A DNA stretch of 64,000 bases, from the IMG/VR virus record IMGVR_UViG_3300043409_000956, positions 29,093-93,092 of that record; one strand, written 5' to 3'. The position numbers and the translations under genes are program-made. This document shows positions 1,327 to 34,610 of the stretch, piece by piece; the first letter of the stretch is position 1; the number at the start of each line of letters is the position of its first letter. The notes under the pieces were generated by a model. That model made no database searches. It saw nothing but the letters and a program-made list of their open reading frames with translations, and was not told where the DNA came from. This DNA is from a virus.

Positions 1327-3606
1327 ATGATGACAATCCAACCGAATCCCGAAATTGAAGTAATTGTTAACTCAGCTATTAAATCAGCTAAAGAACTTAA
1401 CCACGAATATGTAACCCTTGAGCATCTACTCAAAGCGGTTGTGTTGTACAAGCCATTTTACGAGCTTTGTCAAAATTTTGGTGCCGATATTGACAGCATG
1501 GTAATCGAGTTACATCAATATCTTGTATCACAAACATATCTGGTCAGCACAGAGAATGGCTGCGAGCCAAAGAAAACACATGCCCTGGAGCGTATGTTTA
1601 ATCGTGCCTTTACACAGGTGTTGTTCAGTGGACGCACACACATACAAGTGATTGATATCTTCCTAAGTATGTCCAACGAGGCAAATAGTCATGCCGCATA
1701 CTTCATGCTCAAATACGGTCTGGATAGACAAAAGTTAATTGAATTTTATAATGAGAATTATCAAGAGTCCAAACAAGTAAAGGCCGCTCGCAAGTTGCGG
1801 ACACATGATGTACTTGATGAGTATTGTACCAACCTCAGTGAGTCTGCCGCGGCCGGCAACATTGATCCAGTGATTGGTCGTGAATTTGAGATTAACGAAA
1901 TAGCACAGGTCCTGGCCAAACGCAACAAGTCAAATATCTTAATGGTGGGTGATCCCGGTGTGGGTAAAACAGCCATTGCAGAAGGACTGGCAAGAAACAT
2001 CTTTAATAAAGAAGTGCCCGACTACCTACATGATTACACAGTATTCAATTTGGACATTGGCAGTATCCTGGCGGGCAGTAAATACCGCGGTGAGTTTGAA
2101 GAAAAAGTCAAAGACGTTATTGAAGCATTGATTGCACGTGGCAAGTGTATCCTGTTCATAGACGAGGCACATCAAATGCAGGGCGCAGGCTCAGGCAGTC
2201 AAAGTAGTGTGGACTTTGGTAACATGATCAAACCTGCACTGAGCAAGGGACAGATCAAAGTCATTGCAAGTACCACGTGGGAAGAATACTCACAGAGCTT
2301 TGAAAAGGATCGTGCGTTGATGCGTCGATTCCATAGACTGTCAATTGATGAACCTACTCCAGCAGTGGCCAAAGATATCTTGCGTGGCTTGCGTGGATAC
2401 TTTGAAGAGTTCCATGGCGGCATTATTGATGATACAGCCATTGAAAGTGCTGTTGATCTAAGTGTACGCTATCAAACCGACAAGCGCCTGCCCGACAAAG
2501 CAATTGACTTGATAGACAGCGCCTGTGCCAGAGTCAAGTTGGTAGAAAAAGAGTGGGTTGTGGCCAAGAGTCACATCATTGACACCCTGAGCAAGTTCAC
2601 AAAGATACCTGCAGATCAAATTGGTGCAGAAACTGTGCGTAGTTTAGATAACTTAGAAGGCAACATCAAAGCCAAGTTGTATGGACAGGAACAAGTTGTT
2701 GATACAATCTTAGAACGTATATATGTCAGCCGGGCAGGACTCAAAGGCATCAACAAACCCATTGGTAGTTTTCTATTCATTGGACCCACCGGCACAGGTA
2801 AAACTGAACTTGCTAAACTCCTGGCCGAAAACCTCGGGATGAAACTATTAAGATACGATATGAGTGAGTACCAAGAACGGCATTCGGCCAGCAAACTGAT
2901 CGGTGCACCCCCGGGGTATGTAGGCTATGAAGACAGCAACTTAGGTGGTGGCATGCTGATCAGCGATCTAGAAAAGAACACCAATGCAGTCATCTTGTTT
3001 GATGAAATTGAAAAAGCACACCCAGACGTTAGCAATGTACTACTACAGTTGATGGATGAAGGTACGATTACCTCGAGCAATGGCAAAAAAGCAGATGCAC
3101 GTAATGCCATCATCATCATGACCAGTAACTTGGGAGCCGCAGACAATGAACGTAACAGCATTGGATTTAGCTCACCGGAAAAAACTGGTGAAGACGACAA
3201 GGCTGTTAAGGAATTCTTTAAGCCTGAGTTCCGTAATCGCCTGGATGGTATTTGTAAGTTTAACCGACTAGATAAGTTAAGTATTAAGAAAGTAGTTGCC
3301 AAGTTCATTAACGAAGTCAACGACTTGTTAAGTGAAAAGACTATTAAGATTCGATTGACCGAGTCCGCTGTAGACTATTTGGCTGAAGTTGGATATGATA
3401 GCAAGATGGGTGCAAGACCACTAGGTCGTAAAATTAACGATTTGATCAAAGTACCGCTAAGTAAAAAGATACTATTTGAGCGTGTATCCCCAAATAGTAG
3501 TATTACTGTGGACTGGACTGGAACTGAATTTACATTCGATAGCAGAATTTGCATTGAAGCACCCCCCACTGTGGATGAGCATGGATACATCGTACTGGAA
3601 AAATAA
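1327..3606 (+). CDS. clpA: ATP-dependent Clp protease ATP-binding subunit ClpA
   Basis: Clp N-domain, two AAA+ modules (GDPGVGKT, GPTGTGKT), GAPPGYVGY, IGF loop (NSIGF), no ClpB middle domain. Confidence 0.95.
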   Translation: MMTIQPNPEIEVIVNSAIKSAKELNHEYVTLEHLLKAVVLYKPFYELCQNFGADIDSMVIELHQYLVSQTYLVSTENGCEPKKTHALERMFNRAFTQVLFSGRTHIQVIDIFLSMSNEANSHAAYFMLKYGLDRQKLIEFYNENYQESKQVKAARKLRTHDVLDEYCTNLSESAAAGNIDPVIGREFEINEIAQVLAKRNKSNILMVGDPGVGKTAIAEGLARNIFNKEVPDYLHDYTVFNLDIGSILAGSKYRGEFEEKVKDVIEALIARGKCILFIDEAHQMQGAGSGSQSSVDFGNMIKPALSKGQIKVIASTTWEEYSQSFEKDRALMRRFHRLSIDEPTPAVAKDILRGLRGYFEEFHGGIIDDTAIESAVDLSVRYQTDKRLPDKAIDLIDSACARVKLVEKEWVVAKSHIIDTLSKFTKIPADQIGAETVRSLDNLEGNIKAKLYGQEQVVDTILERIYVSRAGLKGINKPIGSFLFIGPTGTGKTELAKLLAENLGMKLLRYDMSEYQERHSASKLIGAPPGYVGYEDSNLGGGMLISDLEKNTNAVILFDEIEKAHPDVSNVLLQLMDEGTITSSNGKKADARNAIIIMTSNLGAADNERNSIGFSSPEKTGEDDKAVKEFFKPEFRNRLDGICKFNRLDKLSIKKVVAKFINEVNDLLSEKTIKIRLTESAVDYLAEVGYDSKMGARPLGRKINDLIKVPLSKKILFERVSPNSSITVDWTGTEFTFDSRICIEAPPTVDEHGYIVLEK

Positions 3607-4291
3607 AAATCACTCGGTCAAATTTGAAGAAACTACCAAACAGTTTTTTGGAAAATACTTGTATCGATTAAAAATGTCTGTTCCTGGTGGGCGTATTATA
3701 TACGAGAATAGAGATTATGCTGAGGCAGTTGAATCAAGGCGCCATTTCCGACAGTTTAATCCTGGCGGATACTGGGGCAAAGGTACATTAAATACAGATA
3801 GTATAGATGTAGGATTACTATATGCTATTCGCGAGTTAAAAGACACTAATCCAAATATCAAAATGCGTGTGGAAGAGCCCGAGATACAGTTCTACGCTGA
3901 GTCTGAAGCGGAGTTAAAAGCTATATCCATTAAGCTAGGGGCAAAATACAATACCGCACTATTGTCAATATCTGGTCCTGCCAGTGACTCCACACAACAA
4001 CTGCTAAAAACTGGCGTAATTATACGCAAAAAAGAATTTGGGTACAAGTATAAGATTATATTGCGTGATTGTCGTTGTGAAATTGATACTAAACAACAAA
4101 TTCTCAACTACATGGAGGGCATGGGCGCAGACGAAGTCAAAGTTTCTGCGGGAACTAAACGTATGCTTGGCTCAAAGTACAACGGATTCTGGGGGATTTG
4201 GTTTTATGCCAACGACGAGAAAGTTATAACTTTTTTAGAACTAATACATCCAGGTTGTGTATTAAATATTCATCCAGTGGTCGTTGCCTAA
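3581..4291 (+). CDS. hypothetical phage protein
   Basis: Long ORF; ATG 3581 gives a short overlap with clpA end. Confidence 0.75.
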   Translation: MDTSYWKNKNHSVKFEETTKQFFGKYLYRLKMSVPGGRIIYENRDYAEAVESRRHFRQFNPGGYWGKGTLNTDSIDVGLLYAIRELKDTNPNIKMRVEEPEIQFYAESEAELKAISIKLGAKYNTALLSISGPASDSTQQLLKTGVIIRKKEFGYKYKIILRDCRCEIDTKQQILNYMEGMGADEVKVSAGTKRMLGSKYNGFWGIWFYANDEKVITFLELIHPGCVLNIHPVVVA

Positions 4292-4321
4292 ATAAATACT
4301 TGTATATTCAAGGAGAAGCCC

Positions 4322-4486
4322 ATGGCTAAGATTCAAGAAGAGATAATTGTCATTACCATCAGTAAACTAGTTAAAAACGACGATGCCGGGCATGATATTG
4401 CAAACACAGAAACTTTAACAGCATTGGCATCTGTAGCAGAAGAACTACTGGGTCAGGGCGTGGTAGTTGAAGTTAACAAAGCATAA
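4322..4486 (+). CDS. small hypothetical protein (54 aa), missed by ORF track
   Basis: TAAATA motif and AAGGAG RBS upstream; MAKIQEEIIVITISKLVK...VVVEVNKA. Confidence 0.8.
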   Translation: MAKIQEEIIVITISKLVKNDDAGHDIANTETLTALASVAEELLGQGVVVEVNKA

Positions 4487-4507
4487 ACAAACCTAAGAAA
4501 GTAATCA

Positions 4508-5407
4508 ATGAGTAAAGAAAAAAAGATTAATCAATCTGCCGCTGTAGAGTTGATCAAAAAAGCCGCGGCTGCCAGGGCGCAACAACAAACACAAGCACCT
4601 GCACAACAACCAGGTCCGGGTGTACCGTTTGACTTTAGTAAAACACATCTACACATCGGCATTCCTTGTTATGGTGGTATGGTTAGTGAACCCACCATGA
4701 CCAGCTTCTTGCGTTTTATCTTGTTGGCACAACAGGCAGGCTTAAATTGGAGCCTAGACACCATGGTCAACGAATCATTGGTTACTCGTGCTCGTAATAA
4801 CTTGATGGCCAAGATGATGACCAACACAGCGGCCACACATTTTATGTTCATCGACGCAGACATTCGCTTTGAACCAGATGCTATTCTTAAAATGATTGCC
4901 TGTGACAAGGATGTCATTGGCGGACTGTATCCCAAGAAAGCCCTGCCAGTCAACTATGTGATTAACCTGCGTCCGGAAACTAAGATCCAAGGTGATATCT
5001 TCACTGTAGACACAATGGGCACAGGCTTCTTGTTGTTCAAGCGTCATGTGTACGAGAAACTGATTGCGGCACATCCAGAGTGCAAGTATGTTGACGATGT
5101 TGGCCTGGGCAAACAGTATGAGCCAATGATGTATAGTATCTTTGATTGTAACATTGATGCCCGCGGACACTATCTAAGTGAAGATTGGTTGTTCTGCAGA
5201 CGCTGGGCGGCCATTGGTGGCGAGATTTGGGCACACGGTAAAGTGTTGTTGAACCACATCGGACACTATGAGTTTGCTGGTGACTTGAGCAAGATGCCAA
5301 AATTTGGCGATGAAGCCAGTAGTGCATTGCCAGGCGGAGCACCAGCCGCACTACGAGATGCTATCAATATGGCTGCCAAGGGCGCACCACAGGCCATCAC
5401 AACCTAA
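4508..5407 (+). CDS. GT-A fold glycosyltransferase-like protein
   Basis: IGIPCYGG, SLVTRARN, FMFIDAD (DxD), GTGFLL, SEDWLFC...GG, H-x-G motifs of phage GT2-like family. Confidence 0.8.
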   Translation: MSKEKKINQSAAVELIKKAAAARAQQQTQAPAQQPGPGVPFDFSKTHLHIGIPCYGGMVSEPTMTSFLRFILLAQQAGLNWSLDTMVNESLVTRARNNLMAKMMTNTAATHFMFIDADIRFEPDAILKMIACDKDVIGGLYPKKALPVNYVINLRPETKIQGDIFTVDTMGTGFLLFKRHVYEKLIAAHPECKYVDDVGLGKQYEPMMYSIFDCNIDARGHYLSEDWLFCRRWAAIGGEIWAHGKVLLNHIGHYEFAGDLSKMPKFGDEASSALPGGAPAALRDAINMAAKGAPQAITT

Positions 5408-5416
5408 GGAAACGAT

Positions 5417-5890
5417 ATGTCAATGGAAAAGATACACTTTAAGATCAAACTCAGTGGAACATATTGGGATAAACGACCACACTATGTTATTCTAATAGAT
5501 GATCAAGAGTGTGTCAATGCCTACATTACAAAAGATTCCGATGAAGTAGAATATGTTGAATTTGATTGTAGTGTGGAAGAAGACACCGAGCATGTTTTAC
5601 GCATACAGTTTGACAATAAAGCACAAGAAGATACAGTCACAGATGTTGCAGATCCCAATAATCATGTAATTATCAAAGACATGTTATTAAACATCATAGA
5701 CATTGAAGTTGATGATATTGAATTAGGTACCTTAACCCAGATGTTAAGCGTATTTAAATATGATGAGCCCCGTGATTGGCCCGAACCCAATAGCACAGAG
5801 TGGGCCAACTGTGTTAATCTTGGTTTTAACGGTACGTATGAGCTTAAATTTAGTAGTCCATTTTACCTCTGGCTACTAGAGAACATATAA
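5417..5890 (+). CDS. hypothetical beta-rich acidic protein
   Basis: ORF with AAGGA RBS; ends FSSPFYLWLLENI. Confidence 0.75.
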   Translation: MSMEKIHFKIKLSGTYWDKRPHYVILIDDQECVNAYITKDSDEVEYVEFDCSVEEDTEHVLRIQFDNKAQEDTVTDVADPNNHVIIKDMLLNIIDIEVDDIELGTLTQMLSVFKYDEPRDWPEPNSTEWANCVNLGFNGTYELKFSSPFYLWLLENI

Positions 5891-5893
5891 ACT

Positions 5894-5913
5894 GGCCCGC
5901 AAGGGCCTTTTTT
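5894..5913 (+). terminator. rho-independent terminator
   Basis: GGCCC-GCAA-GGGCC followed by TTTTTT. Confidence 0.85.
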
Positions 5914-5935
5914 GTTTCCTGCTAAATACAGTACT

Positions 5936-6541
5936 ATGTTTATTTTTGAACTGTTTGAAGCAAAACCAGCCGAAAAGACTGTGGTCATATTGCCCGGTGG
6001 GTTCCATCCCTTTCATCCCGGGCACCTGAGTCTGTACACTTCGGCACAGAAGATGTTTCCTGGTGCTGATATCTACTACGCGGCCACCAACGACAAGGCC
6101 AATAGACCATTTGACATTGCAGACAAAGCACGATTAGCACAAATTGCTGGTGTTCCCCCAGGACATTTTGTACAAGTTAAGAGCCCTTTCCAAGCCAAAG
6201 AAATTACCGCCAATTACGATCCAGCCACAACTGTATTAGTATTTGCCCGTAGTATCAAAGACCGAGATGAACCACCACACGCAGGTGGCGTCAAGAAGGA
6301 TGGCAATCCTGCATACTTACAACCTTACAGTAAAAACCCTGCTCCAATGAGTCAGCATGGTTATATGGCTTACTTGCCTACTGTGGAATTTGCCGCAGGT
6401 CCCAGTGGCATTACTAGTGCTACGCAAATTCGTACAATGTGGCCCAAAGCCACACCAGAACAAAAAGCCGAGATTGTCAGCGACTTGTATCCCAAGAACC
6501 CCCGGGCCGCACATCAGATTCTAGACAAATACCTAGGATAA
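5936..6541 (+). CDS. cytidyltransferase-like (HxGH) nucleotidyltransferase
   Basis: PGGFHPFHPGH and ITSATQIR motifs; preceded by CTAAATA late-promoter-like motif. Confidence 0.8.
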   Translation: MFIFELFEAKPAEKTVVILPGGFHPFHPGHLSLYTSAQKMFPGADIYYAATNDKANRPFDIADKARLAQIAGVPPGHFVQVKSPFQAKEITANYDPATTVLVFARSIKDRDEPPHAGGVKKDGNPAYLQPYSKNPAPMSQHGYMAYLPTVEFAAGPSGITSATQIRTMWPKATPEQKAEIVSDLYPKNPRAAHQILDKYLG

Positions 6542-6855: not shown

Positions 6856-7344
6856 ATGAAACCAACAGATTTTATTGTAGAACACAACCCATTTATAGCA
6901 CAAGATGCCAATGAAATGCACGGCGACCACGAAGTACAAATGGCCCGAGCTGATTGTTATAATGCCGCAGACTATGCCATCAAACTACATAAGATTTTGC
7001 AAGGTATAAAAGAGACTGGACAACTAGAAGGTTGGGTCAGCGAAAAGATCACCCTGGCCAACGACTACTTGCGTACTGTTTATGAGTACTTGAGTTACGA
7101 AAATCGTGAACAAGAATCGGGCGCAATGCCTGCGTTTGCTTATGAATCTGCTGATCGTCGATTTGAAGAAGTTGTGGCAGAGTCTGCCAGTATTGGTGCC
7201 AGTGTCTCAGGTGGTATGGCCATTGGTGCAGTAGGTTCCGCAACTCCCATGCAACGCCGTGTCAAGCAAGAGTCAGCTGCCACTAAAAAGTATGGCAACG
7301 CAATGAAAACAAAACAGCCCAAGATTGGTAAAGGCGTTTATTAA
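6856..7344 (+). CDS. probable virion (internal head) protein
   Basis: TAAATA motif upstream; MKPTDFIVE leader; DHEVQMAR...LEGWVSEKITLANDYL helical module; VAES site. Confidence 0.65.
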   Translation: MKPTDFIVEHNPFIAQDANEMHGDHEVQMARADCYNAADYAIKLHKILQGIKETGQLEGWVSEKITLANDYLRTVYEYLSYENREQESGAMPAFAYESADRRFEEVVAESASIGASVSGGMAIGAVGSATPMQRRVKQESAATKKYGNAMKTKQPKIGKGVY

Positions 7345-7976
7345 TGAGTATGCGTGATCTATTAACCCAGCTGTCAGCGTTGGAAGAAGGTTCCAAGGTT
7401 CGATTTGCCGGCGAGCCCAAACAACGGCCCGGCGATCAAGTGCGTGGCACAGATCGGGCCGTGGGTAAAAAAGGTCAACATCCATTTCAAAATCGCTTGG
7501 TTGGTGGTGAAAGCATCCTGCGTGATTTAGAAGCCGCATTGCACGAAACACCTGTTAGAGACTTGATGCGTGAGTATCAAGACTTTGTCAACGAAGCTCC
7601 TGTTCCTCCCGTGCCCGCTCCAGCAGGTCAACAACAAAATCCCAATCCCAATCCCAATCAACCAAATCAAGATCCAGCAATTTTAGCCGCACAGGCCAAA
7701 CTTGCACAACAACAAAAAACCAAACAAGATGCCGCATTGCAACAAGGTATCTCTAAATTAAAATCAGCTGGTGCTGATGTTGACATGCAGACCATGAATG
7801 ACAAAAACAATGATCTAGCGCCGGTATTAGCACCCATCATGAGCAACCCACAGCTACAAGGCAAATTCCAAGAATTAATCAAACAGGCCAATGCCGAGCA
7901 AAAGAAACAACAACAAGCACAACAGACTGCCGTGCCCGCAGGTGCTGTTGGCGCACCAGTTCCAGGACAGAAATAA
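7344..7976 (+). CDS. Gln/Pro-rich probable internal head protein
   Basis: LEE/VNE sites; low-complexity Q/P/A composition. Confidence 0.6.
   Translation: MSMRDLLTQLSALEEGSKVRFAGEPKQRPGDQVRGTDRAVGKKGQHPFQNRLVGGESILRDLEAALHETPVRDLMREYQDFVNEAPVPPVPAPAGQQQNPNPNPNQPNQDPAILAAQAKLAQQQKTKQDAALQQGISKLKSAGADVDMQTMNDKNNDLAPVLAPIMSNPQLQGKFQELIKQANAEQKKQQQAQQTAVPAGAVGAPVPGQK
7638..7658 (+). repeat. (AATCCC)3.5 tandem repeat encoding NPNPNPN
   Basis: Seen directly in sequence. Confidence 0.8.
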
Positions 7977-7977
7977 T

Positions 7978-10512
7978 ATGAACTTATACGACCTATCTCA
8001 TCCTAGCAAAAAGAAAAAACAACAACTAGCCATGGAAAGCCGCCTGGCTGAATTTGCACCACCTGGTGGAGATGATGGCGGTCCCGACGAAGATGAGATA
8101 CTATTCAAACTAGCCAAACAATGGTGGCTTGGCACTGAACAAGACATGATTCGTGTGGAACGCACACTAGCATCAATGGGTTGGGAAATTGGTGAAGATG
8201 AAGGCAGTTATGACGACGGTGGTGTGTTTGTTGTACGTGCCGGTGATGTCAACGGTAAAAGTTATCAGTCATGGCCGCATGAGGAATTAGTAACGGAAGG
8301 TGCCACGGTAACAACAACCCCTGGATCCGTTGAGCCAGGTGGTGCAGTAGACAACTTTAAACAACAGATGGCCAACAATACTGAACTTGCATATCAGAAA
8401 AAACAACAAGGCATGGCCGAAGGTGACACTGTAGTCAAACACCGTATCGGCCTAACTGTCACAGACCCCAACCACCCCATGGCGAGCAAGCGCAACGAAC
8501 CCTTTCAACGGACTGTGCGTGTGCCCGGCGATGATCCTGCCAAGGCCATCAATGCGGCCATTGCACACTATCGCCGCAAAGGTTACAAAGTGCATGACCA
8601 TCACTACATGGGCACAGTGGACTATACCATAGACGAAGCGGCACCCGATTGGTTGAGACGCACAGCCGGTGCGGCCACAGGTGCATTGGCCGGTGTTGGT
8701 GCAAGTTTCCCCGGTGCGGCCATTGCAGGTCCCATTGGTGGTGCAGTGGCAGGTGCATACGGAGCCAAAGCCGGATATGATTTAGGTGCCGATGCCGCTG
8801 ACTGGGTATATGACAAAGTCACTGGCGAACGAGTTCCGGCAGACAAGACCGAGGTTGATGAAGCATTAACAATGAAGCATCAGCGAGCTCATACAACTCA
8901 AAGACGCCCCGACATCAGCAATAGCCTGGCCGATAGAGACTTTGACATGTCAGAGAAACCCAATGTTGCCAAGAGTGCAGATGGTCACCCCACAGTCAAG
9001 TGGCGTCATCATGGCCATGCCGGACATACTAGAGTTGAGCCCACACTGAACCCGACCACAGTGCAACGCAAGGACACAAGACCCATACCATCTTTCTTGA
9101 AGAAAGGCATGGCGGAAGACGCAGAAAACTTTAACGGCATTGAGTTATCAATGAAGATACAACTCCAAGATGTTGAATATGTTGATGATGAAGATTATGA
9201 TAATCAAGTAATATATGTCACTGCTAGTAGCAACGGTAGGGAACTGGGGCATGTGTTATTTTCGTTTGATGGTGAGTATTTAATGCCTCAGGATTTAGAA
9301 GTAGAAGAAAAGTATCGTGGACAGGGCATTGCTCAAACAATGTATGATTATGTAAAGAGCAAAGGATATAAAATACGCCGCAGTGGACAACAAACTGATG
9401 CAGGCGCTGGATTTTGGGACAAACATAAACCTGGAAAAAATGTCTGGGAACAAGGTGTGGCGGAAGGCTCACTAAACGAATTTGCACCAGATGGCTTTAA
9501 CGGTGATGACGATGAAGGATTCAGTCCGGAAATTGCCAAGATGGCGTATGATGCTGGTAGTGTCAAGGGCGTGAGCCTTGCTGACGGTGCTACATTAGCC
9601 AGAGCAATGGCGATAACGGAGTGGGACAAACAAGACGGTGGCATTTACACCCAGCACTTTGCAAAAGGCTTCAAAGCAGGTCGTATGAATAAAATCAATC
9701 ACCACAATAAACAATACAATCTCAACTTGAAGTTGATGAAAGATGGTAGCATTAGACGCGGTCAGCAAGGTGTGGCGGAAGGTTCATTAGAAGAAGATGA
9801 ATATGATAAAATGCTAAGAGATTTGTTGAAGGCAAGACCTGACTTAACTAAAAAATATGCCAAAGATGTTCAAAAGTCAAAAGATATTGAAAGTGGCAAA
9901 GAGTTAAACAAACTTGTTAAAAAGAATCCTGGTGTATTGAAAACATACAGTGATGCTGTAAAGAGAGATAAGAAACTAGGTGTGGCGGAAGGTGGATACC
10001 GTCAAGGTTTTGCAGATCCCAACGCACCCAGTCTAGGTGGCAGTCGTAGAAAAGATGACGAAGGCAACTCAGAGTTTGATGACCGTCAGCGTAGACAAAC
10101 CGGAATGATATTCTACAAGGTTGACGACGCCGAACTAGCACAACAACTAGGACTCAAACAAACTCGTGCAGGCAAGTGGTATTTGCGTACAGGTAACAGA
10201 CATGCACAACAGACTGCTGACCGTGCATTTGGCCTGGGACGCATTTGGTATCCAAAGAATGAAACTGTAGAGTCAGAAGAGCTCGGCGAACTCAGCAATG
10301 AGTTGTTGGGTCGTTACAAAAAAGAACTAGGTATCCGTGCTAGTGCCGCAGATCGAGCAGGCAACTTTGACAAAGGTCACGAATACTTTAAAAAAATCAA
10401 CCGAGCAACTGTTCGCCAAGGTGATAATGATGCTCGCAGACACGCAGAAAAAGAAAACGATGTAATGGAAACTCGTTTAAATATGATGCGTAAGGCAGGA
10501 TACGATCTATGA
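7978..10512 (+). CDS. mosaic multi-module polyprotein with GVAEG/GMAEG linkers, includes a GNAT acetyltransferase module
   Basis: ATG 7978 after upstream stop; five G(V/M)AE(G/D) linkers; GNAT motif A (EKYRGQGIAQTMY); Gly-zipper segment. Confidence 0.8.
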   Translation: MNLYDLSHPSKKKKQQLAMESRLAEFAPPGGDDGGPDEDEILFKLAKQWWLGTEQDMIRVERTLASMGWEIGEDEGSYDDGGVFVVRAGDVNGKSYQSWPHEELVTEGATVTTTPGSVEPGGAVDNFKQQMANNTELAYQKKQQGMAEGDTVVKHRIGLTVTDPNHPMASKRNEPFQRTVRVPGDDPAKAINAAIAHYRRKGYKVHDHHYMGTVDYTIDEAAPDWLRRTAGAATGALAGVGASFPGAAIAGPIGGAVAGAYGAKAGYDLGADAADWVYDKVTGERVPADKTEVDEALTMKHQRAHTTQRRPDISNSLADRDFDMSEKPNVAKSADGHPTVKWRHHGHAGHTRVEPTLNPTTVQRKDTRPIPSFLKKGMAEDAENFNGIELSMKIQLQDVEYVDDEDYDNQVIYVTASSNGRELGHVLFSFDGEYLMPQDLEVEEKYRGQGIAQTMYDYVKSKGYKIRRSGQQTDAGAGFWDKHKPGKNVWEQGVAEGSLNEFAPDGFNGDDDEGFSPEIAKMAYDAGSVKGVSLADGATLARAMAITEWDKQDGGIYTQHFAKGFKAGRMNKINHHNKQYNLNLKLMKDGSIRRGQQGVAEGSLEEDEYDKMLRDLLKARPDLTKKYAKDVQKSKDIESGKELNKLVKKNPGVLKTYSDAVKRDKKLGVAEGGYRQGFADPNAPSLGGSRRKDDEGNSEFDDRQRRQTGMIFYKVDDAELAQQLGLKQTRAGKWYLRTGNRHAQQTADRAFGLGRIWYPKNETVESEELGELSNELLGRYKKELGIRASAADRAGNFDKGHEYFKKINRATVRQGDNDARRHAEKENDVMETRLNMMRKAGYDL
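8407..9992 (+). repeat. dispersed linker repeat (CAA)GG(T/C)(G/A)TGGC(G/C)GAAG(G/A), 5 copies
   Basis: Copies at 8407, 9103, 9451, 9766, 9976; exact 14-mer GGTGTGGCGGAAGG at 9454, 9769, 9979. Confidence 0.85.
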
Positions 10513-10940
10513 CACTATCAGAAACTACAAAAATAGCATTTGCTAGCGAATATACCTTTTATTTGAAGGCACACAACTTTCACTGGAATGTGGAAGGTGC
10601 TGACTTCCTAGAACATCACCAGTTGTTTGGCATGATCTACGAAGAAGTATACGGTGCCATTGACGATTTTGCAGAAAAGATTCGCGGCATCGGTAGTTAT
10701 GTGCCAGCCAGCTACACCAGATTCAGTCAATTGAGTCAAATTGGTGACGAGACCAACATACTCAGCCCGGGTGCCATGTTGCATGAACTATCAGAAGACA
10801 ATGAAAAAATGTTGTTGGTACTGAAGATGGCTTATGATGCAGCCGAACAAGCCGGCGAGCATGGATTCTCAAACTTCTTAGCTGAACGGTTAGATGCACA
10901 TCGTAAACACGGTTGGATGTTGAGAGCAAGTCTAAAATAA
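10509..10940 (+). CDS. dps: Dps / ferritin-like DNA protection protein
   Basis: KAHNFHWNVEG..F...H.LF...YEE....D..AE.IR and HRKHGWML motifs. Confidence 0.93.
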   Translation: MTLSETTKIAFASEYTFYLKAHNFHWNVEGADFLEHHQLFGMIYEEVYGAIDDFAEKIRGIGSYVPASYTRFSQLSQIGDETNILSPGAMLHELSEDNEKMLLVLKMAYDAAEQAGEHGFSNFLAERLDAHRKHGWMLRASLK

Positions 10941-11641
10941 TGTTGCCCATCATAGCAACATTGGTGATGACACATATCACCATCATATGTGTCACAGTTT
11001 TCCTACACCGCGGACAAGCACATCGCGGATTGATATTTCATCCTGTACTTAGTCACTTTATGCGAGCCTGGCTTTGGCTAACAACCGGAATGGTCACTAA
11101 ACAATGGGTAGCCATACATCGTAAGCATCATAGGTTCAGTGATGTTGCGGGTGACCCACATAGCCCACACGTATATGGAATTGGACGAGTATTGTTTAAA
11201 GGAGCAATGTTATATCATGAAGCAAGCAAAGATACGGACATGGTTAATACATATGGTGCTGGTACTCCTGCTGATTGGATGGAGCTTCACGTATACCAGC
11301 CTTACTCTAGACTTGGCATTGGCATTCTCTTTGTGCTAGACGTCTTGGTGTTTGGATGGTGGGGTCCTGTAATTTGGGGCATCCAGATGATATGGATACC
11401 GTTTTGGGCAGCCGGAGTCATAAACGGCGTTGGTCATTGGATTGGGTATCGTAATGGTGAAACCAAAGATCATAGTCGTAACATCGTGCCTTGGGGCATT
11501 GTCGTTGGTGGAGAGGAGTTGCACAACAATCACCACCTGAACCCAGCAAGTCCCAGGCTCAGCAAGACCTGGTTTGAATTTGATGCAGGCTGGATGTACA
11601 TAAATATTTTTAAATCGCTTGGACTACTTAAAATTAAATGA
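10940..11641 (+). CDS. membrane fatty acid (acyl-CoA delta-9-type) desaturase
   Basis: His boxes HRGQAH, HRKHH, HNNHH; DPHSP; transmembrane segments. Confidence 0.92.
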   Translation: MLPIIATLVMTHITIICVTVFLHRGQAHRGLIFHPVLSHFMRAWLWLTTGMVTKQWVAIHRKHHRFSDVAGDPHSPHVYGIGRVLFKGAMLYHEASKDTDMVNTYGAGTPADWMELHVYQPYSRLGIGILFVLDVLVFGWWGPVIWGIQMIWIPFWAAGVINGVGHWIGYRNGETKDHSRNIVPWGIVVGGEELHNNHHLNPASPRLSKTWFEFDAGWMYINIFKSLGLLKIK

Positions 11642-12267
11642 CATTTTTCTATAAAGAATTAGACCTGCCACCCATACCAGAAGAATTACTAGCACATTTG
11701 CCCGAGATCAGCGATGAGACAACTGCAAAAGATATCGGATATGGATACAGACATTTTAAAAATGGTGTAGAGTTGCATGCCTGCACCTACTCGTGGACTG
11801 TGATCAACGAAGGAATAATGTTGCCATGGTTAAAACAAAATATACTGCCGATACAAAAACATTTAGCAAATGCCACAGTCGATATTCCAGTATACATGCA
11901 GACCGCGACTCCGAGACACCCAGAAGGTGGGGTACATATTGTGCATTCTGATTTCAAAAGAATTGCCGGACTAAATTATCATTGGGCTCTGGGCGGTGAC
12001 GCTGTTGTTAATCGATGGTACAAAGAAAAAGGCAAACCCTTACTGCGCCGTAAAACACAACGTGGGCGACAGTCGGATTCCGGGCGTGTTAAATATGATG
12101 ATTTAGAAATATTAGAAGAAGTTATTATAAAAAAGAATTGTTGGTATCTTATCAACGTGGCCTGCTTGCATGATGTACAAAACATCACCAGCACAAGACA
12201 AGGTATAACAGTTCCATTTATTTCCAACAAAGTGTTGGAGTTGGCAGGTTTTACAGAACACCCTTAG
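11638..12267 (+). CDS. putative double-stranded beta-helix (2OG-Fe(II)/cupin-like) protein
   Basis: HxD (VHSD) plus distal LHDV..R pattern. Confidence 0.5.
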   Translation: MTFFYKELDLPPIPEELLAHLPEISDETTAKDIGYGYRHFKNGVELHACTYSWTVINEGIMLPWLKQNILPIQKHLANATVDIPVYMQTATPRHPEGGVHIVHSDFKRIAGLNYHWALGGDAVVNRWYKEKGKPLLRRKTQRGRQSDSGRVKYDDLEILEEVIIKKNCWYLINVACLHDVQNITSTRQGITVPFISNKVLELAGFTEHP

Positions 12268-12360
12268 GACCGTAACTTAGGTTACGTGGGTGACCCGGCT
12301 GCTGGGTTCCAAATGTGGGAGTCGTGCCCCATCAAGCATTTGGTGAAGTGAGCACTATTT
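12262..12360 (+). ncRNA. candidate structured intergenic RNA
   Basis: GC-rich island with three consecutive hairpins followed by a T-run. Confidence 0.55.
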
Positions 12361-12389
12361 TTTTCTAAAGAATTGTGTTATAATCAATA

Positions 12390-14809: not shown

Positions 14810-17473
14810 ATGAGTTATGTAGACGCTCTCTTTGATAGAGCAAAAGATAAGATACACATAGTTGAGCGAGTCAACGGAGAACGAGTATATCGTGAATATC
14901 CTGCAGACTATATCTTTTACTATGATGATCCCCGCGGCAAGTTTCGCACCATATACGACACCCCGGTTGGCAGGTTCAGTAGTCGCAACAGCAAAGAATA
15001 TCACAAAGAACTAAAAGCCAACTCAGGTAAGCGACTATGGGAAAGTGACATCAATCCCATCTTCCGATGTCTTGAGACCAATTACCTTGGTGTACCTAGT
15101 CCCAAATTACACACAGCCTTTTTCGATATTGAGGTGGACTTTGATCCCTTGCGAGGCTTTAGTAAACCCGAAGATCCCTTTAATCCTATCACTGCTATTT
15201 CAGTTTACCTAGACTGGATGGATAAACTAGTCACGCTGGTTATTCCTCCCAAAAGTTATTCGTGGGAAACTGCACAGGAAATTTGTAACAGGTATGATAA
15301 CTGTTTCTTGTTTGAACGAGAAGCAGACATGTTGGACACATTTCTTGACTTGATTGATGACGCAGATATTTTAAGTGGATGGAACAGTGAAGGCTTTGAT
15401 ATTCCCTACACTGTCATGCGTATTCAACGTGTACTAAGCAAGGATGATACAAGACGCTTTTGTCTATGGGGACAACTGCCCAAGCAAAGAACTTTTGAAC
15501 GCTTCGGTGCTGAAAATTTGACCTTTGACTTGATTGGTCGTGTGCATATGGACTATATGCAACTGTACCGCAAGTACACCTATGAGGAACGACACAGTTA
15601 TAGTCTAGACGCAATTGGTGAATATGAAGAATGTGGCAGTAAGGTTGCTTACGAAGGCACATTGGATCAACTTTACAATAAAGATTTCCCGACGTTTATT
15701 GAATATAACCGACAAGATACCATGCTAATTGCTAAGTTTGATAAGAAGCTCCGCTTCTTGGATCTAGCAAACGAACTTGCTCATGACAACACGGTGTTGT
15801 TACCAACCACAATGGGTGCGGTTGCAGTAACAGAGCAGGCTATCATTAATGAAGCTCATCAGCGTGGTATGATTGTTCCTAATAGAAAGAGCAAAGATGA
15901 CCCAAGAGAAACGCAAGCCGCAGGTGCCTATGTTGCTTACCCCAAAAGGGGAGTACACGAATACATCGGTGCGATCGACATCAACAGTCTCTACCCCTCG
16001 GCTATTAGAGCCCTTAACATGGGCCCAGAAACAATCGTTGGGCAACTCCGGACCACAATGACCGACCACTACATCAAGGAAAAGATGACAGCAGGTTCGT
16101 CTTTTGCTGATGCGTGGGAAAATATGTTTGGTAGTTTGGAATATCAGGCAGTCATGAACAACGAGCTTGGTACTGAGATTACCATCGACTGGGCCAGTGG
16201 TGAAGAAACTGTACACAGTGCGGCTGAAGTCTGGCGATTAATATTCAACGGTAACCAACCGTGGACACTCAGTGCCAATGGCACTATATTTAGATATGAC
16301 ATGAAGGGTATTATTCCCGGCTTGTTGGAAAGGTGGTATGCAGAACGTAAAGAAATGCAAGCAAAAAAGAAGACCGCAGAAACTGCTGAAGACACGGCGT
16401 TCTGGGATAAACGCCAACTCGTTAAAAAAATTAACCTTAATTCGCTCTATGGGGCTATCCTCAACCCACATTGCAGGTTCTTTGACCAAAGAATTGGCCA
16501 AAGTACGACACTTACTGGTAGGATCATTGCCAAACACATGGACGCCACAGTTAACCAAGCAATTACAGGCGACTACGACCACGTTGGTTCGAGCATTATC
16601 TATGGCGACACGGACTCGGTATACTTTACAGCGTGGCCCGCGGTCAAAGCGGAAGTAGAATCCGGTGCAATGGAATGGAACAAAGACATTGCTGTACAAC
16701 TGTATGATACCATTGCCGATGGTGTAAATGAATCGTTCCCAGGGTTTATGGAACGGGCCTGTCATTGCCCTAGAGAAATGGGTGAGATCATCATGGGTGG
16801 TCGAGAGCTTGTGGCTCGCAAAGGTTTGTTTATTAAGAAGAAGCGTTATGCTGTGTTGATTTACGATATGGAAAATCATCGATTAGATGTAAACGGTAAG
16901 CCAGGCAAAGTAAAAGCCATGGGTCTAGACTTGAAGCGTAGTGATACTCCCAAAATTGTACAAGAGTTCTTGAGTGAAATACTTATGGATGTACTAACCA
17001 CAGACGATGCTAGAGAAGTAGTCATCGACAAAGTACGTGAATTTAAACTTGAATTTCAGAAACGTCCGGCTTGGGAAAAGGGCACTCCCAAGCGTGTGAA
17101 CAACTTGACCAAGTATACCGCAGAAGAAGCCAGACTAGGCAAAGCCAACATGCCGGGACATGTACGAGCCGCAATGAATTGGAACAATCTAAAGCGTATG
17201 CATGGTGACAACTATTCAACCAGTATTGTTGATGGTATGAAGACCATTGTTTGTAAATTACGAGATAATCCCTTGGGATATACCAGTGTTGGTTATCCCA
17301 CAGACGAAACACATATACCACAGTGGTTCAAAGATCTTCCGTTTGATCAAGACAGTATGGAAACAGGCATTGTGGATCAAAAGGTAGAAAACTTGTTGGG
17401 TGTACTAGAATGGCAAATTGCCGACAGTACAGACATCAAGTCAACATTTGACTCATTGTTTACTTGGGAATAA
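14810..17473 (+). CDS. polB: family B DNA polymerase (T4 gp43-like)
   Basis: Exo motifs FDIE, GWNSEGFD, YNRQD; Pol motifs DINSLYPS, KINLNSLYG, YGDTDS, KKRY. Confidence 0.97.
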   Translation: MSYVDALFDRAKDKIHIVERVNGERVYREYPADYIFYYDDPRGKFRTIYDTPVGRFSSRNSKEYHKELKANSGKRLWESDINPIFRCLETNYLGVPSPKLHTAFFDIEVDFDPLRGFSKPEDPFNPITAISVYLDWMDKLVTLVIPPKSYSWETAQEICNRYDNCFLFEREADMLDTFLDLIDDADILSGWNSEGFDIPYTVMRIQRVLSKDDTRRFCLWGQLPKQRTFERFGAENLTFDLIGRVHMDYMQLYRKYTYEERHSYSLDAIGEYEECGSKVAYEGTLDQLYNKDFPTFIEYNRQDTMLIAKFDKKLRFLDLANELAHDNTVLLPTTMGAVAVTEQAIINEAHQRGMIVPNRKSKDDPRETQAAGAYVAYPKRGVHEYIGAIDINSLYPSAIRALNMGPETIVGQLRTTMTDHYIKEKMTAGSSFADAWENMFGSLEYQAVMNNELGTEITIDWASGEETVHSAAEVWRLIFNGNQPWTLSANGTIFRYDMKGIIPGLLERWYAERKEMQAKKKTAETAEDTAFWDKRQLVKKINLNSLYGAILNPHCRFFDQRIGQSTTLTGRIIAKHMDATVNQAITGDYDHVGSSIIYGDTDSVYFTAWPAVKAEVESGAMEWNKDIAVQLYDTIADGVNESFPGFMERACHCPREMGEIIMGGRELVARKGLFIKKKRYAVLIYDMENHRLDVNGKPGKVKAMGLDLKRSDTPKIVQEFLSEILMDVLTTDDAREVVIDKVREFKLEFQKRPAWEKGTPKRVNNLTKYTAEEARLGKANMPGHVRAAMNWNNLKRMHGDNYSTSIVDGMKTIVCKLRDNPLGYTSVGYPTDETHIPQWFKDLPFDQDSMETGIVDQKVENLLGVLEWQIADSTDIKSTFDSLFTWE

Positions 17474-28843: not shown

Positions 28844-29199
28844 CAAGACTATACGGACAAGTAGAAAAAGGGTGGGGTTCAGAAGAAATCTGGGCCAGCA
28901 ACGACCGATACTGCGGTAAGTTAATGAACTTTAATACCGGTGCAAAATTCAGTATGCATTTCCATGCAGAAAAAGATGAGAGCTGGTATGTGCTCAGTGG
29001 AAAGTTCAGTGTACACTACATCGACACCGTAGATGCCAGTCTACGTACAGCAGAACTGAATCCTGGAGACACATGGCATAACCTACCATTGTTGCCACAT
29101 CAATTAGAGTGTGTTGAAGCTGGTACTGTAATCGAAGTTAGTACACCAGACAGCGTAGAAGACAACTATCGTGTGGGTAAAGGTGATAGTCAACGATGA
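28840..29199 (+). CDS. cupin sugar isomerase-like protein
   Basis: KGWG.E, SMHFH..KDE.WYV, PHQL, EVST. Confidence 0.8.
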   Translation: MTRLYGQVEKGWGSEEIWASNDRYCGKLMNFNTGAKFSMHFHAEKDESWYVLSGKFSVHYIDTVDASLRTAELNPGDTWHNLPLLPHQLECVEAGTVIEVSTPDSVEDNYRVGKGDSQR

Positions 29200-33788: not shown

Positions 33789-34105
33789 TGCAACTGCCGC
33801 CAGGTGTTACAGTCAACTACTTTATTGCCATTGAGATTGATCGATTAACTGAAGAAATGGTCGACTGGTTTGAGATGATAGGCGGCCAAGTTGGCAAAGA
33901 AATCAAATGGACCAGGCGCGGTAGTACTATCAATTTGCCCGTTGTGCAATATGGCCAAGGCAAGCCCAGTTACTACAGACAAGATGGATCAGGCAGTGTG
34001 CGTCTAAATTTCCACGGTGATGATGCCAGTGCGGCCAGTATGTTTATATTGAAATTCATGGAACATGTTCAACAACACAATTTGAAAGAGGTACACTTTG
34101 CATAA
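33785..34105 (+). CDS. hypothetical protein
   Basis: Coupled ORF. Confidence 0.7.
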   Translation: MMQLPPGVTVNYFIAIEIDRLTEEMVDWFEMIGGQVGKEIKWTRRGSTINLPVVQYGQGKPSYYRQDGSGSVRLNFHGDDASAASMFILKFMEHVQQHNLKEVHFA

Positions 34106-34610
34106 AGTATATTATACACCAGACGATGTTCGGTATTGGTTACACAACATCATCAGAGACATGACCGCACACAACTGGCGACCCGACTACATTGTGGGCA
34201 TTGGTCGAGGTGGATTGATTCCTGCTACCATGTTGAGTCATTATATGAATGTGCCCATGCAAACACTTGATGTTAGCCTGCGTGACAGCACAGTTGGACC
34301 AACCAGTAACTGCGGCATGGCCGAAGATGCATATGGTGGCGGCCGTGTGTTTCACCGTAAAAATATATTGGTTGTAGATGACATCAACGACTCAGGTGCC
34401 ACACTTGAATGGATCAAAAACGATTGGCCAGCTTCGTGTATGCCCAACGATACTGCGTGGCAAGACATTTGGCACAGCAATGTTCGCTTTGCTGTGATGG
34501 TCAATAATCAGACTAGTGCGTTCAAAGATGCTGACTATGTGGGTGCTCATATTAACAAACTAGAGCAAGATATTTGGTGTGTTTTTCCCTGGGAAGAATG
34601 GTGGAGATAA
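34098..34610 (+). CDS. purine phosphoribosyltransferase (Gpt/Hpt-like)
   Basis: GIGRGGLIPA, ILVVDDINDSGAT PRPP loop, WCVFPWE. Confidence 0.9.
   Translation: MHKVYYTPDDVRYWLHNIIRDMTAHNWRPDYIVGIGRGGLIPATMLSHYMNVPMQTLDVSLRDSTVGPTSNCGMAEDAYGGGRVFHRKNILVVDDINDSGATLEWIKNDWPASCMPNDTAWQDIWHSNVRFAVMVNNQTSAFKDADYVGAHINKLEQDIWCVFPWEEWWR

Follow-up and report, generated by a model that had tools for sequence, protein, structure and literature searches.

The open reading frame (ORF) at positions 7978–10512 on the plus strand of a 64,000-nucleotide stretch of viral DNA (positions 29,093–93,092 of the record IMGVR_UViG_3300043409_000956; the whole stretch is termed the window below) codes for a polyprotein of 844 amino acids (aa) and 93.7 kDa (P0001), which is almost certainly built from cassettes that are exchanged at short, recurring joints. 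Comparison with T4-like phages makes it probable that this polyprotein is capsid cargo, packaged and cut by a prohead protease. We see an even chance that one joint of 15–21 nucleotides (nt) has two roles, being the prohead-protease cut site as peptide and a homology patch as DNA, and that it thereby gives rise to an array of injected effectors. The window is part of a 93-kb IMG/VR record, 26% complete according to CheckV, and it stems from a jumbo phage of the T4 superfamily, uncultured and found in freshwater; the PolB encoded at 14810–17473 shares 41–51% identity with its counterparts in Sinorhizobium phage Phosso, Agrobacterium phage Atu_ph07, and Rak2-like phages.

The reading frame is open from position 7891, and the ATG at 7978 begins 1 nt past the stop of the gene at 7344–7976. 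A 25-aa leader is followed by ten mutually unrelated modules of 41–116 aa; in a module-versus-module BLASTP within the ORF, every pairwise E-value was >0.1. The initial annotation had proposed about ten unrelated modules parted by recurring Glu sites, and all of the sites it listed are present. The leader and the modules, all on the plus strand, are as follows.

7978..8052, leader MNLYDLSHPSKKKKQQLAMESRLAE (aa 1–25), of the family's M-x-hydrophobic-x-D/E-L/F class (MNLFDLFEG, MRATEFITE); low predicted local distance difference test (pLDDT) scores at 1–9 and 21–33.
8053..8298, M1 (aa 26–107), acidic, 9.1 kDa; predicted alpha/beta domain with pLDDT 86–95.
8299..8421, M2 (aa 108–148), short, predicted to be disordered or helical; its terminal joint is QQGMAE, then G.
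8422..8637, M3 (aa 149–220), confidently predicted beta-alpha-beta domain.
8638..8862, M4 (aa 221–295), Gly/Ala-rich and glycine-zipper-like, with low model confidence.
8863..9117, M5 (aa 296–380), basic (pI 10.3), predicted to be disordered; its terminal joint is KKGMAE, then D; a contig diverges at 8863.
9118..9465, M6 (aa 381–496), minimal GNAT-like acetyltransferase with an RGQGIA motif.
9466..9780, M7 (aa 497–601), 'NEFAPDG' module without assigned function.
9781..9990, M8 (aa 602–671), Lys-rich and helical.
9991..10278, M9 (from aa 672 to about 767), GGYRQGFADPNAP module, the alpha/beta core of which is modelled confidently at 707–759; the 3' boundary is approximate (aa 758–767).
10279..10509, M10 (aa 768–844), helical hairpin matching phrog_26930.

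The Glu sites along the polyprotein are located at the following residues.

aa 23–28, LAE/FAP.
aa 105–108, VTE/G.
aa 145–149, GMAE/G.
aa 218–221, IDE/A.
aa 293–296, VDE/A.
aa 377–381, GMAE/D.
aa 493–505, GVAE/GSLNE/FAP.
aa 598–606, GVAE/GSLEE.
aa 668–672, GVAE/G.
aa 769–775, LGE/LSNE.

Five joints of the ORF read G[V/M]AE, followed by G or D, and the five copies of G[MV]AE compare with 0.05 expected from the composition of the ORF. At the level of DNA, the motif GGYRTGGCSGAAG is present in five copies in the ORF and in seven copies in the window (0.15 expected in the shuffled window at ≤1 mismatch), and all seven exact copies encode G-V/M-A-E in frame, inside open frames. The five joints in the ORF, which were found by motif search, and the two copies of a further 12-mer lie on the plus strand at these positions.

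8410..8422, joint 1, GGCATGGCCGAAG (G-M-A-E, then G).
9106..9118, joint 2, GGCATGGCGGAAG (G-M-A-E, then D); DNA identity to the orthologous locus L008 ends at 9118, and the X6 contig diverges at 9116.
9454..9466, joint 3, GGTGTGGCGGAAG (G-V-A-E, then G); contigs from several independent runs attach other upstream cassettes here, with loose ends at 9449–9452.
9769..9781, joint 4, GGTGTGGCGGAAG (G-V-A-E, then G); contigs diverge directly after it, at 9779–9783.
9979..9991, joint 5, GGTGTGGCGGAAG (G-V-A-E, then G); DNA identity to L008 returns at 9974.
8050..8061, GAATTTGCACCA (E-F-A-P), copy 1; in L008, a 23-nt repeat beginning here brackets an extra 83-aa cassette.
9478..9489, GAATTTGCACCA (E-F-A-P), copy 2, at the start of M7.

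The two copies of GAATTTGCACCA, at 8050 and 9478, bear out the earlier statement that an identical 12-mer opens two modules. Instead of a cut site, the peptide EFAP may be what is left of a targeting leader, as MRLREFAP occurs as an N-terminus in the family. An exact copy of the joint motif GGCATGGCCGAAG, read C-G-M-A-E-D, is also located in a phosphoribosyltransferase-like gene at 34098–34610 (...ILVVDDINDSGATL...), with G-M-A-E at 34314, and may be a coincidence or a trace of exchange. As joints, this G-M-A-E and a GVAE in a J-domain at 441 were both rejected, because they look like ordinary protein sequence. The GC content swings along the ORF, from 0.57–0.63 at 8400–8850 to 0.35–0.41 at 9075–9450 and 0.32–0.37 at 9675–9975. 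The initial annotation had taken this swing, which is real, to indicate separate origins of the modules; origins are not proven by GC, however, and since the differences follow Gly/Ala-rich versus Lys/Asp/Asn-rich amino acid content, they were set aside as a sign of foreign origin.

A word-indexed search with the polyprotein returned 608 matching proteins of 468–1460 aa, each covering 9–45% of the query, often at 70–94% identity, and an exhaustive HMMER search yielded at least 1785 clusters at 50% identity. The HMMER matches, too, cover part of the query only, and include proteins of 132–250 aa with one or two modules; both searches taken together, the family ranges from 50 to 97% identity and from 132 to 1460 aa in length, and is found in lake and freshwater metagenomes of many studies. 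In comparison with 119 relatives, the homology breakpoints cluster at aa 20–23, 104–105, 140–149, 214–215, 374–380, 491–500, 596–605, 668–673, and 759–768, and these clusters of ends of high-scoring segment pairs (HSPs) coincide with the linkers that had been picked out in the initial annotation. The weakest boundary is VDE/A, with few HSP ends at 286–297; an independent contig still diverges exactly at nt 8863. In 238 family members, 46% of the internal HSP ends are located within 6 aa of the Glu of a G[VMLI]AE motif, as compared to 6.4% for random positions. Splitting these 238 proteins at G[VMLI]AE produced 820 segments in 433 clusters and 219 distinct architectures, so that the family is anything but a collinear, invariant protein. 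Several relatives have long collinear stretches of multiple cassettes in common, at 90–94% identity.

Individual cassettes recur in changing company. No cassette is found in the family more often than M6, whose 87 copies have 46 different neighbours on the left and 52 on the right. M7, with 34 left and 38 right neighbours among 42 copies, also exists as a stand-alone gene behind a leader. An almost identical copy of M8 is part of a 499-aa protein of the complete relative G001, and the joint-bounded segment of aa 672–844 (M9–M10) is C-terminal in 30 of its 32 carriers in the family. Partner cassettes in the relatives comprise the Pfam domains GNAT, dCMP/cytidine deaminase, NUDIX, Zeta-toxin kinase, Pol-beta nucleotidyltransferase, and HD/HD_4, and further GH19 plus LysM, cytidylyltransferase, methyltransferase, GP88, and several domains of unknown function (DUFs). 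Among cultured phages, megablast with positions 7000–12000 gave no match, and tblastn with the whole protein gave a single short module match, to Synechococcus phage BUCT-ZZ01, where a 38% identical copy of M3 is contained in a 613-aa protein. BUCT-ZZ01 is a cultured freshwater T4-like cyanophage; its 613-aa 'hypothetical protein' (ON615601.1 33658–35496, L076), encoded two genes downstream of the large terminase, contains copies of M3 and of the C-terminal cassette M10, with other segments and Glu-rich junctions between them.

The orthologous locus L008 (IMGVR_UViG_3300032245_000578) has the same neighbour genes in the same order as the window, namely genes for a glycosyltransferase-like protein, a 157-aa protein, an HxGH nucleotidyltransferase, proteins of 94, 162, and 227 aa, the polyprotein, a Dps-like protein, and proteins of 242 and 209 aa; its polyprotein has 1129 aa and differs by whole cassettes. 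The shared cassettes at 8050–9118 are 92% identical in DNA, as compared to about 78% for the flanks at 4002–6180 and 10278–12368, a difference that points to a recent lateral transfer of cassette blocks or to a stronger constraint on them. Identity between the two loci breaks off with the last base of joint 2 (9118) and returns at 9974, five bases before joint 5; the only match between these positions is a segment of 34 nt on joint 3. The extra 83-aa cassette of L008 follows the leader and is bracketed by a 23-nt repeat that starts with the 12-mer GAATTTGCACCA. A comparison of orthologous loci had been proposed as a check in the initial annotation, together with the idea that payloads are gained and swapped as cassettes; in L008 and hundreds of relatives, modules have indeed been added, lost, or substituted precisely at the joints, with the DNA breakpoints of L008 on the joints themselves.

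Contigs of independent freshwater and lake metagenomes diverge from the locus at 8057, 8863, 9116, 9449–9452, and 9779–9783, and in one contig 8302–9446 is replaced by 152 other letters. The read junctions 9470→9764 and 9471→9763 were left uncounted, since they have 19–20 letters on one side and can arise from two identical joints; likewise, uncovered bins in X2, X6, and X20 were not taken as evidence, nor contigs from RNA libraries as proof of transcription. Because the joints are repeated within and between phages of the same samples, one might suspect an assembly chimera formed at the repeats. The exact repeats, however, are only about 17 nt long and thus below the k-mer sizes of assemblers, a Logan contig of 15.9 kb from a second assembly (possibly of the same sample) spans 7300–11000 in one piece with 1 mismatch, the relatives share the long collinear stretches mentioned above, and the frame is open for 844 codons; the probability of a chimera appears negligible.

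AlphaFold2 modelling of the full-length protein resulted in a predicted template modelling score (pTM) of 0.29 and a mean pLDDT of 56, with confident islands at 34–106, 152–215, 381–464, 707–759, and 774–840, and with each proposed joint in a stretch of pLDDT <50; the ESM Atlas model of the polyprotein had a pTM of 0.21. The predicted structure is that of beads on a string with disordered joints, in line with the earlier view that the ORF is not one fold, and the models lend no support to a protein folding as one unit. The sole Pfam family signal of P0001 is a minimal GNAT domain at aa 398–466, with scores under the curated cut-offs (20.6 versus 27 bits, 19.7 versus 20.7 bits); homologous cassettes of relatives clear the Pfam GNAT cut-offs. 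The RGQGIA of M6 fits the pattern Q/R-x-x-G-x-G/A of the acetyl-CoA-binding motif A, and M6 also gave weak fold matches covering about 55–115 residues (Foldseek E-values of 0.05–0.2 at a probability of 0.99; VIA Z-score of 8.5 to HAT1). Apart from these weak GNAT and HAT1 matches and a generic helical hairpin at 763–843, fold searches (Foldseek with the whole model against the PDB, and VIA-align in wide mode) retrieved nothing, and they scarcely probed M1, M3, and M9. A PDB sequence search gave no match, and an ESM Atlas search with aa 672–844 gave no feature score ≥0.9 and no structural match with a template modelling (TM) score >0.34. The predicted cassette products of 4–13 kDa are in the size range of the internal proteins (IPs) of T4.

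Across the family, the joint reads (K/W/G)-(E/K/Q)-Q-G-(V 87%, M 9%)-A-E, then G (62%), A, D, or N, and G[VMLI]AE occurs 599 times in the 238 proteins, as compared to 15 expected occurrences. The conserved start of the GNAT cassette (x-x-E-N/H-FNG), compared in 100 copies, comes after a leader, as in MRAKEFITE/GQEN-FNG, or after a joint, as in QGVAE/GQEN-FNG, and the Glu is located four residues before FNG in both cases. Because the Glu register is identical, the joint is the positional equivalent of the end of a leader. Codon usage was evaluated for 116 joints in 30 ORFs, using the remainder of the same ORFs as background.

Val codon GTG, 90% at joints, 20% elsewhere.
Ala codon GCG, 78% at joints, 7% elsewhere.
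Gly codon GGT, 83% at joints, 45% elsewhere.

The resulting DNA consensus is CAA GGT GTG GCG GAA GGC, and related loci of 656 kb in total contain the 12-mer GGTGTGGCGGAA 56 times without mismatch. A further 34 sites differ by one mismatch, with silent third-position changes accounting for 23 of them and Val-to-Met changes for four; since the variants are thus mostly silent or Val-to-Met, the peptide is under selection besides the fixation of codons. Being conserved as DNA as well as peptide, the joint probably doubles as a recombination site, and homologous exchange requires just such a patch, short, identical, and in frame, wherever two cassettes meet.

These data also bear on two readings in which the peptide is not a cut site. 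If the joint were purely a DNA recombination site, i.e., a patch of short homology or the site of some unknown recombinase, with the peptide as a passenger, one would expect the observed fixation of codons that are rare elsewhere, the 56 exact 12-mers, and the DNA breakpoints on the motif; moreover, T4-type phages shuffle at conserved motifs such as PeSLs (promoter early stem-loops; PMC2839356) and the glycine-rich motifs of gp38 (PMC3157838). We nevertheless regard this explanation as improbable, because all seven copies in the window read G-V/M-A-E in frame, the one-mismatch variants overwhelmingly preserve the peptide or replace Val by Met, and stand-alone cassettes, which carry different DNA (that of the leader) at this place, end on the same Glu. 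Alternatively, each joint could be an internal translation start (GTG or ATG after GAG-CAA-GG), giving separate proteins from one mRNA. GTG or ATG indeed accounts for 91% of the P3 codons, and at P6, three codons before Val/Met, the share of GAG among the Glu codons exceeds the background. The AAGG, however, is 1 nt from the start codon and therefore too close for a Shine-Dalgarno sequence, internal initiation would leave the fixed GCG-GAA-GG downstream, the invariant Glu, and the long stop-free frame unexplained, and cassettes that are separate genes in the window (61246, 62004) use overlapping GTGA junctions and a full leader, all of which renders this alternative very unlikely.

The N-termini of the family, such as MRATEFITE, MRAQEFIAE, MRAKEFIVE, MRAKEFITE, and MNLFDLFEG, resemble the MKTYQEFIAE/A of T4 IPII and IPIII (T4 sequence taken from NC_000866), a likeness of sequence only. 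In T4, MKTYQEFIAE is a capsid-targeting sequence (CTS), in which residues 4 and 7 target the protein and residues 8 and 10 govern its processing, and gp21 cuts after L/I-x-E (PMC9026906). The leader of P0001 is a 25-aa variant, MNLYDLSHP...RLAE, which also occurs in eight relatives. P0001 is encoded at the end of a cluster of leader-bearing genes, the other members of which are given below.

5936..6541, plus strand, HxGH nucleotidyltransferase with leader MFIFELFE/A; a terminator-like hairpin and CTAAATA are located upstream.
6856..7344, plus strand, 162-aa protein with leader MKPTDFIVE/H; ATAAATA is located 20 nt upstream.
7344..7976, plus strand, 210-aa two-part protein starting with MSMRDLL..ALEE/G; an internal leader, MREYQDFVNE/A, is encoded at nt 7566.

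The internal T4-like leader, its Met included, is located 74 codons into the frame at 7344–7976 and is conserved in L008, where it reads MREYKNFIKE/A. Two leader-bearing genes appear to have fused here recently, and polyproteins may arise by this route.

Head genes were identified in two relatives with complete genomes, G001 (367 kb) and G002 (374 kb), which show the T4 gene order of portal, acidic core protein, S77 protease, gp22-like scaffold, and gp23-type major capsid protein (MCP). The S77 protease of G001 is encoded at 62183–62818; PolB and the ClpA-like protein of G001 are 59% and 55% identical to those of the window, and the local synteny is similar. A search of five further fragments for PF03420 and PF07068 revealed one more MCP. 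The gp23 protein of T4 has a 65-residue propeptide ending in FLTE/A (PMC9026906), and in the alignment column of FLTE65/A the MCPs of G001, G002, and G009 have LLAE/S, MLAE/N, and YLSE/S as predicted sites. The scaffolds contain KLVAEG in G001 and G002 and also KFVAES in G001, and the start of the G001 core protein, MDNKKFEKLIDLIINE, resembles the family leaders MTNKSIRDYINLIEN. The hydrophobic-x-Glu specificity of T4-type prohead proteases that the initial annotation had assigned to the Glu sites thus agrees with the sites predicted in MCPs and scaffolds of relatives; the EFAP sites, as possible leader relics, may have to be taken out of this assignment. In T4, an Asp at P1 prevents processing but leaves targeting intact. 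The packaged, protease-cut precursor assumed in the initial annotation agrees with all of the indirect tests made, on leaders, Glu register, and the sites of relatives.

On this basis, we propose that the T4-CTS-type N-terminal leader directs the 94-kDa precursor to the prohead's scaffolding core, where a T4-type (S77) prohead protease would cut after the Glu of each hydrophobic-x-Glu joint, above all at (E/K/Q)-Q-G-(V/M)-A-E/(G/A/D/N). Cutting would free about ten unrelated proteins of 4–13 kDa, among them the putative minimal GNAT acetyltransferase, all of which would be retained inside the head and then reach the host together with the DNA, as early effectors. As DNA, the joint would be a short in-frame homology patch that allows cassettes to be lost, inserted, or traded among phages; the breakpoints are observed, and homologous recombination at the patch is the presumed mechanism. 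The outcome would be an integron-like in-frame array, with a different kit in almost every phage.

An uncleaved multidomain 'polyvalent' protein, acting or delivered as one polypeptide, with joints that are flexible linkers and handy recombination patches, is an unlikely alternative to such a packaged and cut precursor. Phage proteins with 2–15 conflict domains are common (PMC5512222), the joints are disordered in the model, and the codon fixation hints at a role at the DNA level. Flexible linkers, however, need no invariant G-V/M-A-E with selection on the peptide; moreover, the joint Glu keeps exact register with the Glu that ends the CTS-like leaders of stand-alone cassette copies, and the motif matches MCP and scaffold sites of relatives. 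In contrast to typical polyvalent proteins, P0001 has no embedded peptidase: no peptidase family was detected against Pfam at E ≤1, PHROGs, or in the fold searches.

The precursor might also be cut at its joints in the cytoplasm, by another phage protease or a host protease, as an unpackaged early or middle polyprotein. The gene is surrounded by replication and DNA-modification genes (PolB, Dps-like protein, ClpA/B-like ATPase) and not by the head module, and the canonical T4 late-promoter octamer TATAAATA does not occur on either strand of the 64 kb, as compared to 3.3 expected occurrences; the NTAAATA variants upstream of 5936 and 6856 are weak evidence on the timing of expression. Cytoplasmic cutting is still quite improbable in our judgement, given that the IP genes of T4 are likewise located outside the head module, that the leaders are of the capsid-targeting type and the joints match MCP and scaffold sites, and that a scan of the neighbours at 384–21371 against PHROGs revealed no gene for a site-specific protease.

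Several observations weigh against packaging and prohead cleavage of P0001. Cleavage, packaging, and ejection are all inferred from sequence, the phage being uncultured. Genes for the protease and the MCP (PF03420, PF07068) were not found in its own 93-kb record, which is only a 26% fragment and hence uninformative on their absence, and the head module is borrowed from relatives whose PolB is only 59% identical. P3 of the joint is Val or Met, whereas gp21 of T4 prefers Leu or Ile and the MCP site of the relatives has Leu. The 25-aa leader of P0001 is less T4-like than MRAKEFITE and longer than the T4 CTSs of 10–19 aa. M4 and M5, being predicted to be disordered, may be spacers instead of effectors. 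Finally, the strong codon fixation could mean that the motif is retained mainly as a DNA site, and the start codons at P3 leave a small probability of internal initiation.

A second cluster of leader-bearing cargo genes is located on the minus strand of the window, at 59516–63890, where the same cassette logic is present in unfused form, with translational coupling.

61246–59516, minus strand, 576-aa protein starting with MKIKDIIVE/S, with an internal PGVAE/G joint and a basic NFADGKNPGRKGLAKRSG... tail that is common to the ends of several family members.
62004–61243, minus strand, 253-aa protein starting with MKIKDIIVE/S, with a ParB-like ...VLDGHHRFWAY... motif.
63890–62001, minus strand, 629-aa protein with PAVAE/D.

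Both MKIKDIIVE genes begin at overlapping GTGA junctions and have near-identical upstream DNA (GCCAAAAGGAnTCAGCA-GTGAAAATCAAA). G001 possesses at least five leader-bearing genes (254503–256002, 187357–190894, and 346231, all on the minus strand). Four of its proteins start with MRA(S/T/N)EFI(T/S)E, those of 181, 528, and 649 aa encoded near 187–191 kb and one of 134 aa at 346231, and its 499-aa polyprotein with three joints starts with MRAHELEES, contains the near-identical M8, and has a zincin-like HELTHH motif at its end. In the neighbourhood of the polyprotein gene, a Dps/ferritin-like DNA-binding protein (phrog_3636, E-value of 6e-27) is encoded at 10509–10940, with an ATGA overlap with the polyprotein stop, and is syntenic in L008. 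Upstream of the cargo cluster, 1327–3606 encodes a 759-aa protein with two ClpA/ClpB-type AAA+ modules (phrog_4871 'ATP-dependent protease', E-value of 4e-237), the G001 copy of which is 55% identical and located in the same neighbourhood.

If the joints are cut in the prohead, the principle of the T4 internal proteins would have been turned into a combinatorial delivery system, in which one leader loads a whole string of cargo, the maturation protease releases the units, and the nucleotide-fixed joint permits frame-safe swaps between phages. This would explain the diversification of the first-minute arsenal of giant phages. The leader and the G-V/M-A-E joint would provide a handle to mine metagenomes for thousands of small, mostly unannotated candidate effectors and anti-defence proteins, the 433 cassette clusters in 238 proteins being a ready catalogue of candidates for host takeover and anti-defence, and the polyprotein would be a natural design for loading multiple proteins into T4-type capsids.

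A literature search, which did not cover all journals, retrieved no description of linker-delimited cargo polyproteins. The closest parallels are the internal proteins IPI, IPII, IPIII, and Alt of T4, which have the same leader pattern with a hydrophobic-x-Glu end (MKTYQEFIAE/A in T4; MRAQEFIAE/S and MRAKEFITE/G in the family; MREYQDFVNE/A in the upstream gene). Their cargo bodies are likewise small and highly diverse and encoded outside the head module, and relatives of the window phage have a T4-type protease, scaffold, and MCP. In T-even phages, the IP genes are a hyperplastic, host-range-related locus. The T4 proteins, however, are encoded by separate genes and cut once each. In the family described here, many cassettes of other members are enzymes, as many as ten or more units of putative cargo are joined in a single frame, and the putative cut site is repeated internally, fixed at the nucleotide level, and marks recombination breakpoints.

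Polyvalent proteins also combine many unrelated conflict-type domains in one polypeptide for which delivery along with the DNA is predicted; both repertoires contain GNAT, Zeta toxin, NUDIX-like, HD/RelA-SpoT-like, lysozyme, and ParB domains, and the analogy to a polyprotein fits both (PMC5512222). Their release is thought to occur via embedded peptidases of the MPTase or papain-like type (Iyer, Burroughs, Anand, de Souza, and Aravind 2017; PMC5512222). Processing of P0001, in contrast, would occur in trans, by the head-maturation protease at a joint of 4–6 residues; its modules are much smaller, it has a T4-type leader, and its joint is conserved as DNA. In phiKZ, 201phi2-1, and SPN3US, head-internal proteins are cut at S/A-x-E by gp175-type proteases, and propeptides are targeting signals (PMC5694885, PMC9026906). 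These are giant phages as well, with many head proteins cut after Glu, some of them at several sites, but they belong to another lineage (as judged from the T4-type PolB of the window phage and the gp23-type MCP of its relatives), and their inner-body and ejection proteins are not mosaics of exchangeable cassettes with a nucleotide-fixed joint.

With respect to exchange, PeSLs (PMC2839356) and the motifs of gp38 (PMC3157838) are similar in that short conserved motifs border variable segments and exchange takes place there, in gp38 even in frame within one ORF. PeSLs, however, are intergenic elements of about 100 bp, comprising a sigma70-type promoter and a stem-loop and flanking an ORFan, whereas the joint is a coding sequence of 15–21 nt inside one ORF; it is thus not a PeSL family member and resembles PeSLs only in its mode of working. 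The gp38 motifs form one folded core presenting loops, whereas the joints part independent domains and resemble a protease site. Integrons differ in having an integrase and attC sites, in place of which the polyprotein has a single reading frame and presumably relies on general homologous recombination; operationally, the two are analogous in that unrelated cassettes, set off by a repeated site, can be exchanged within an open-ended array.

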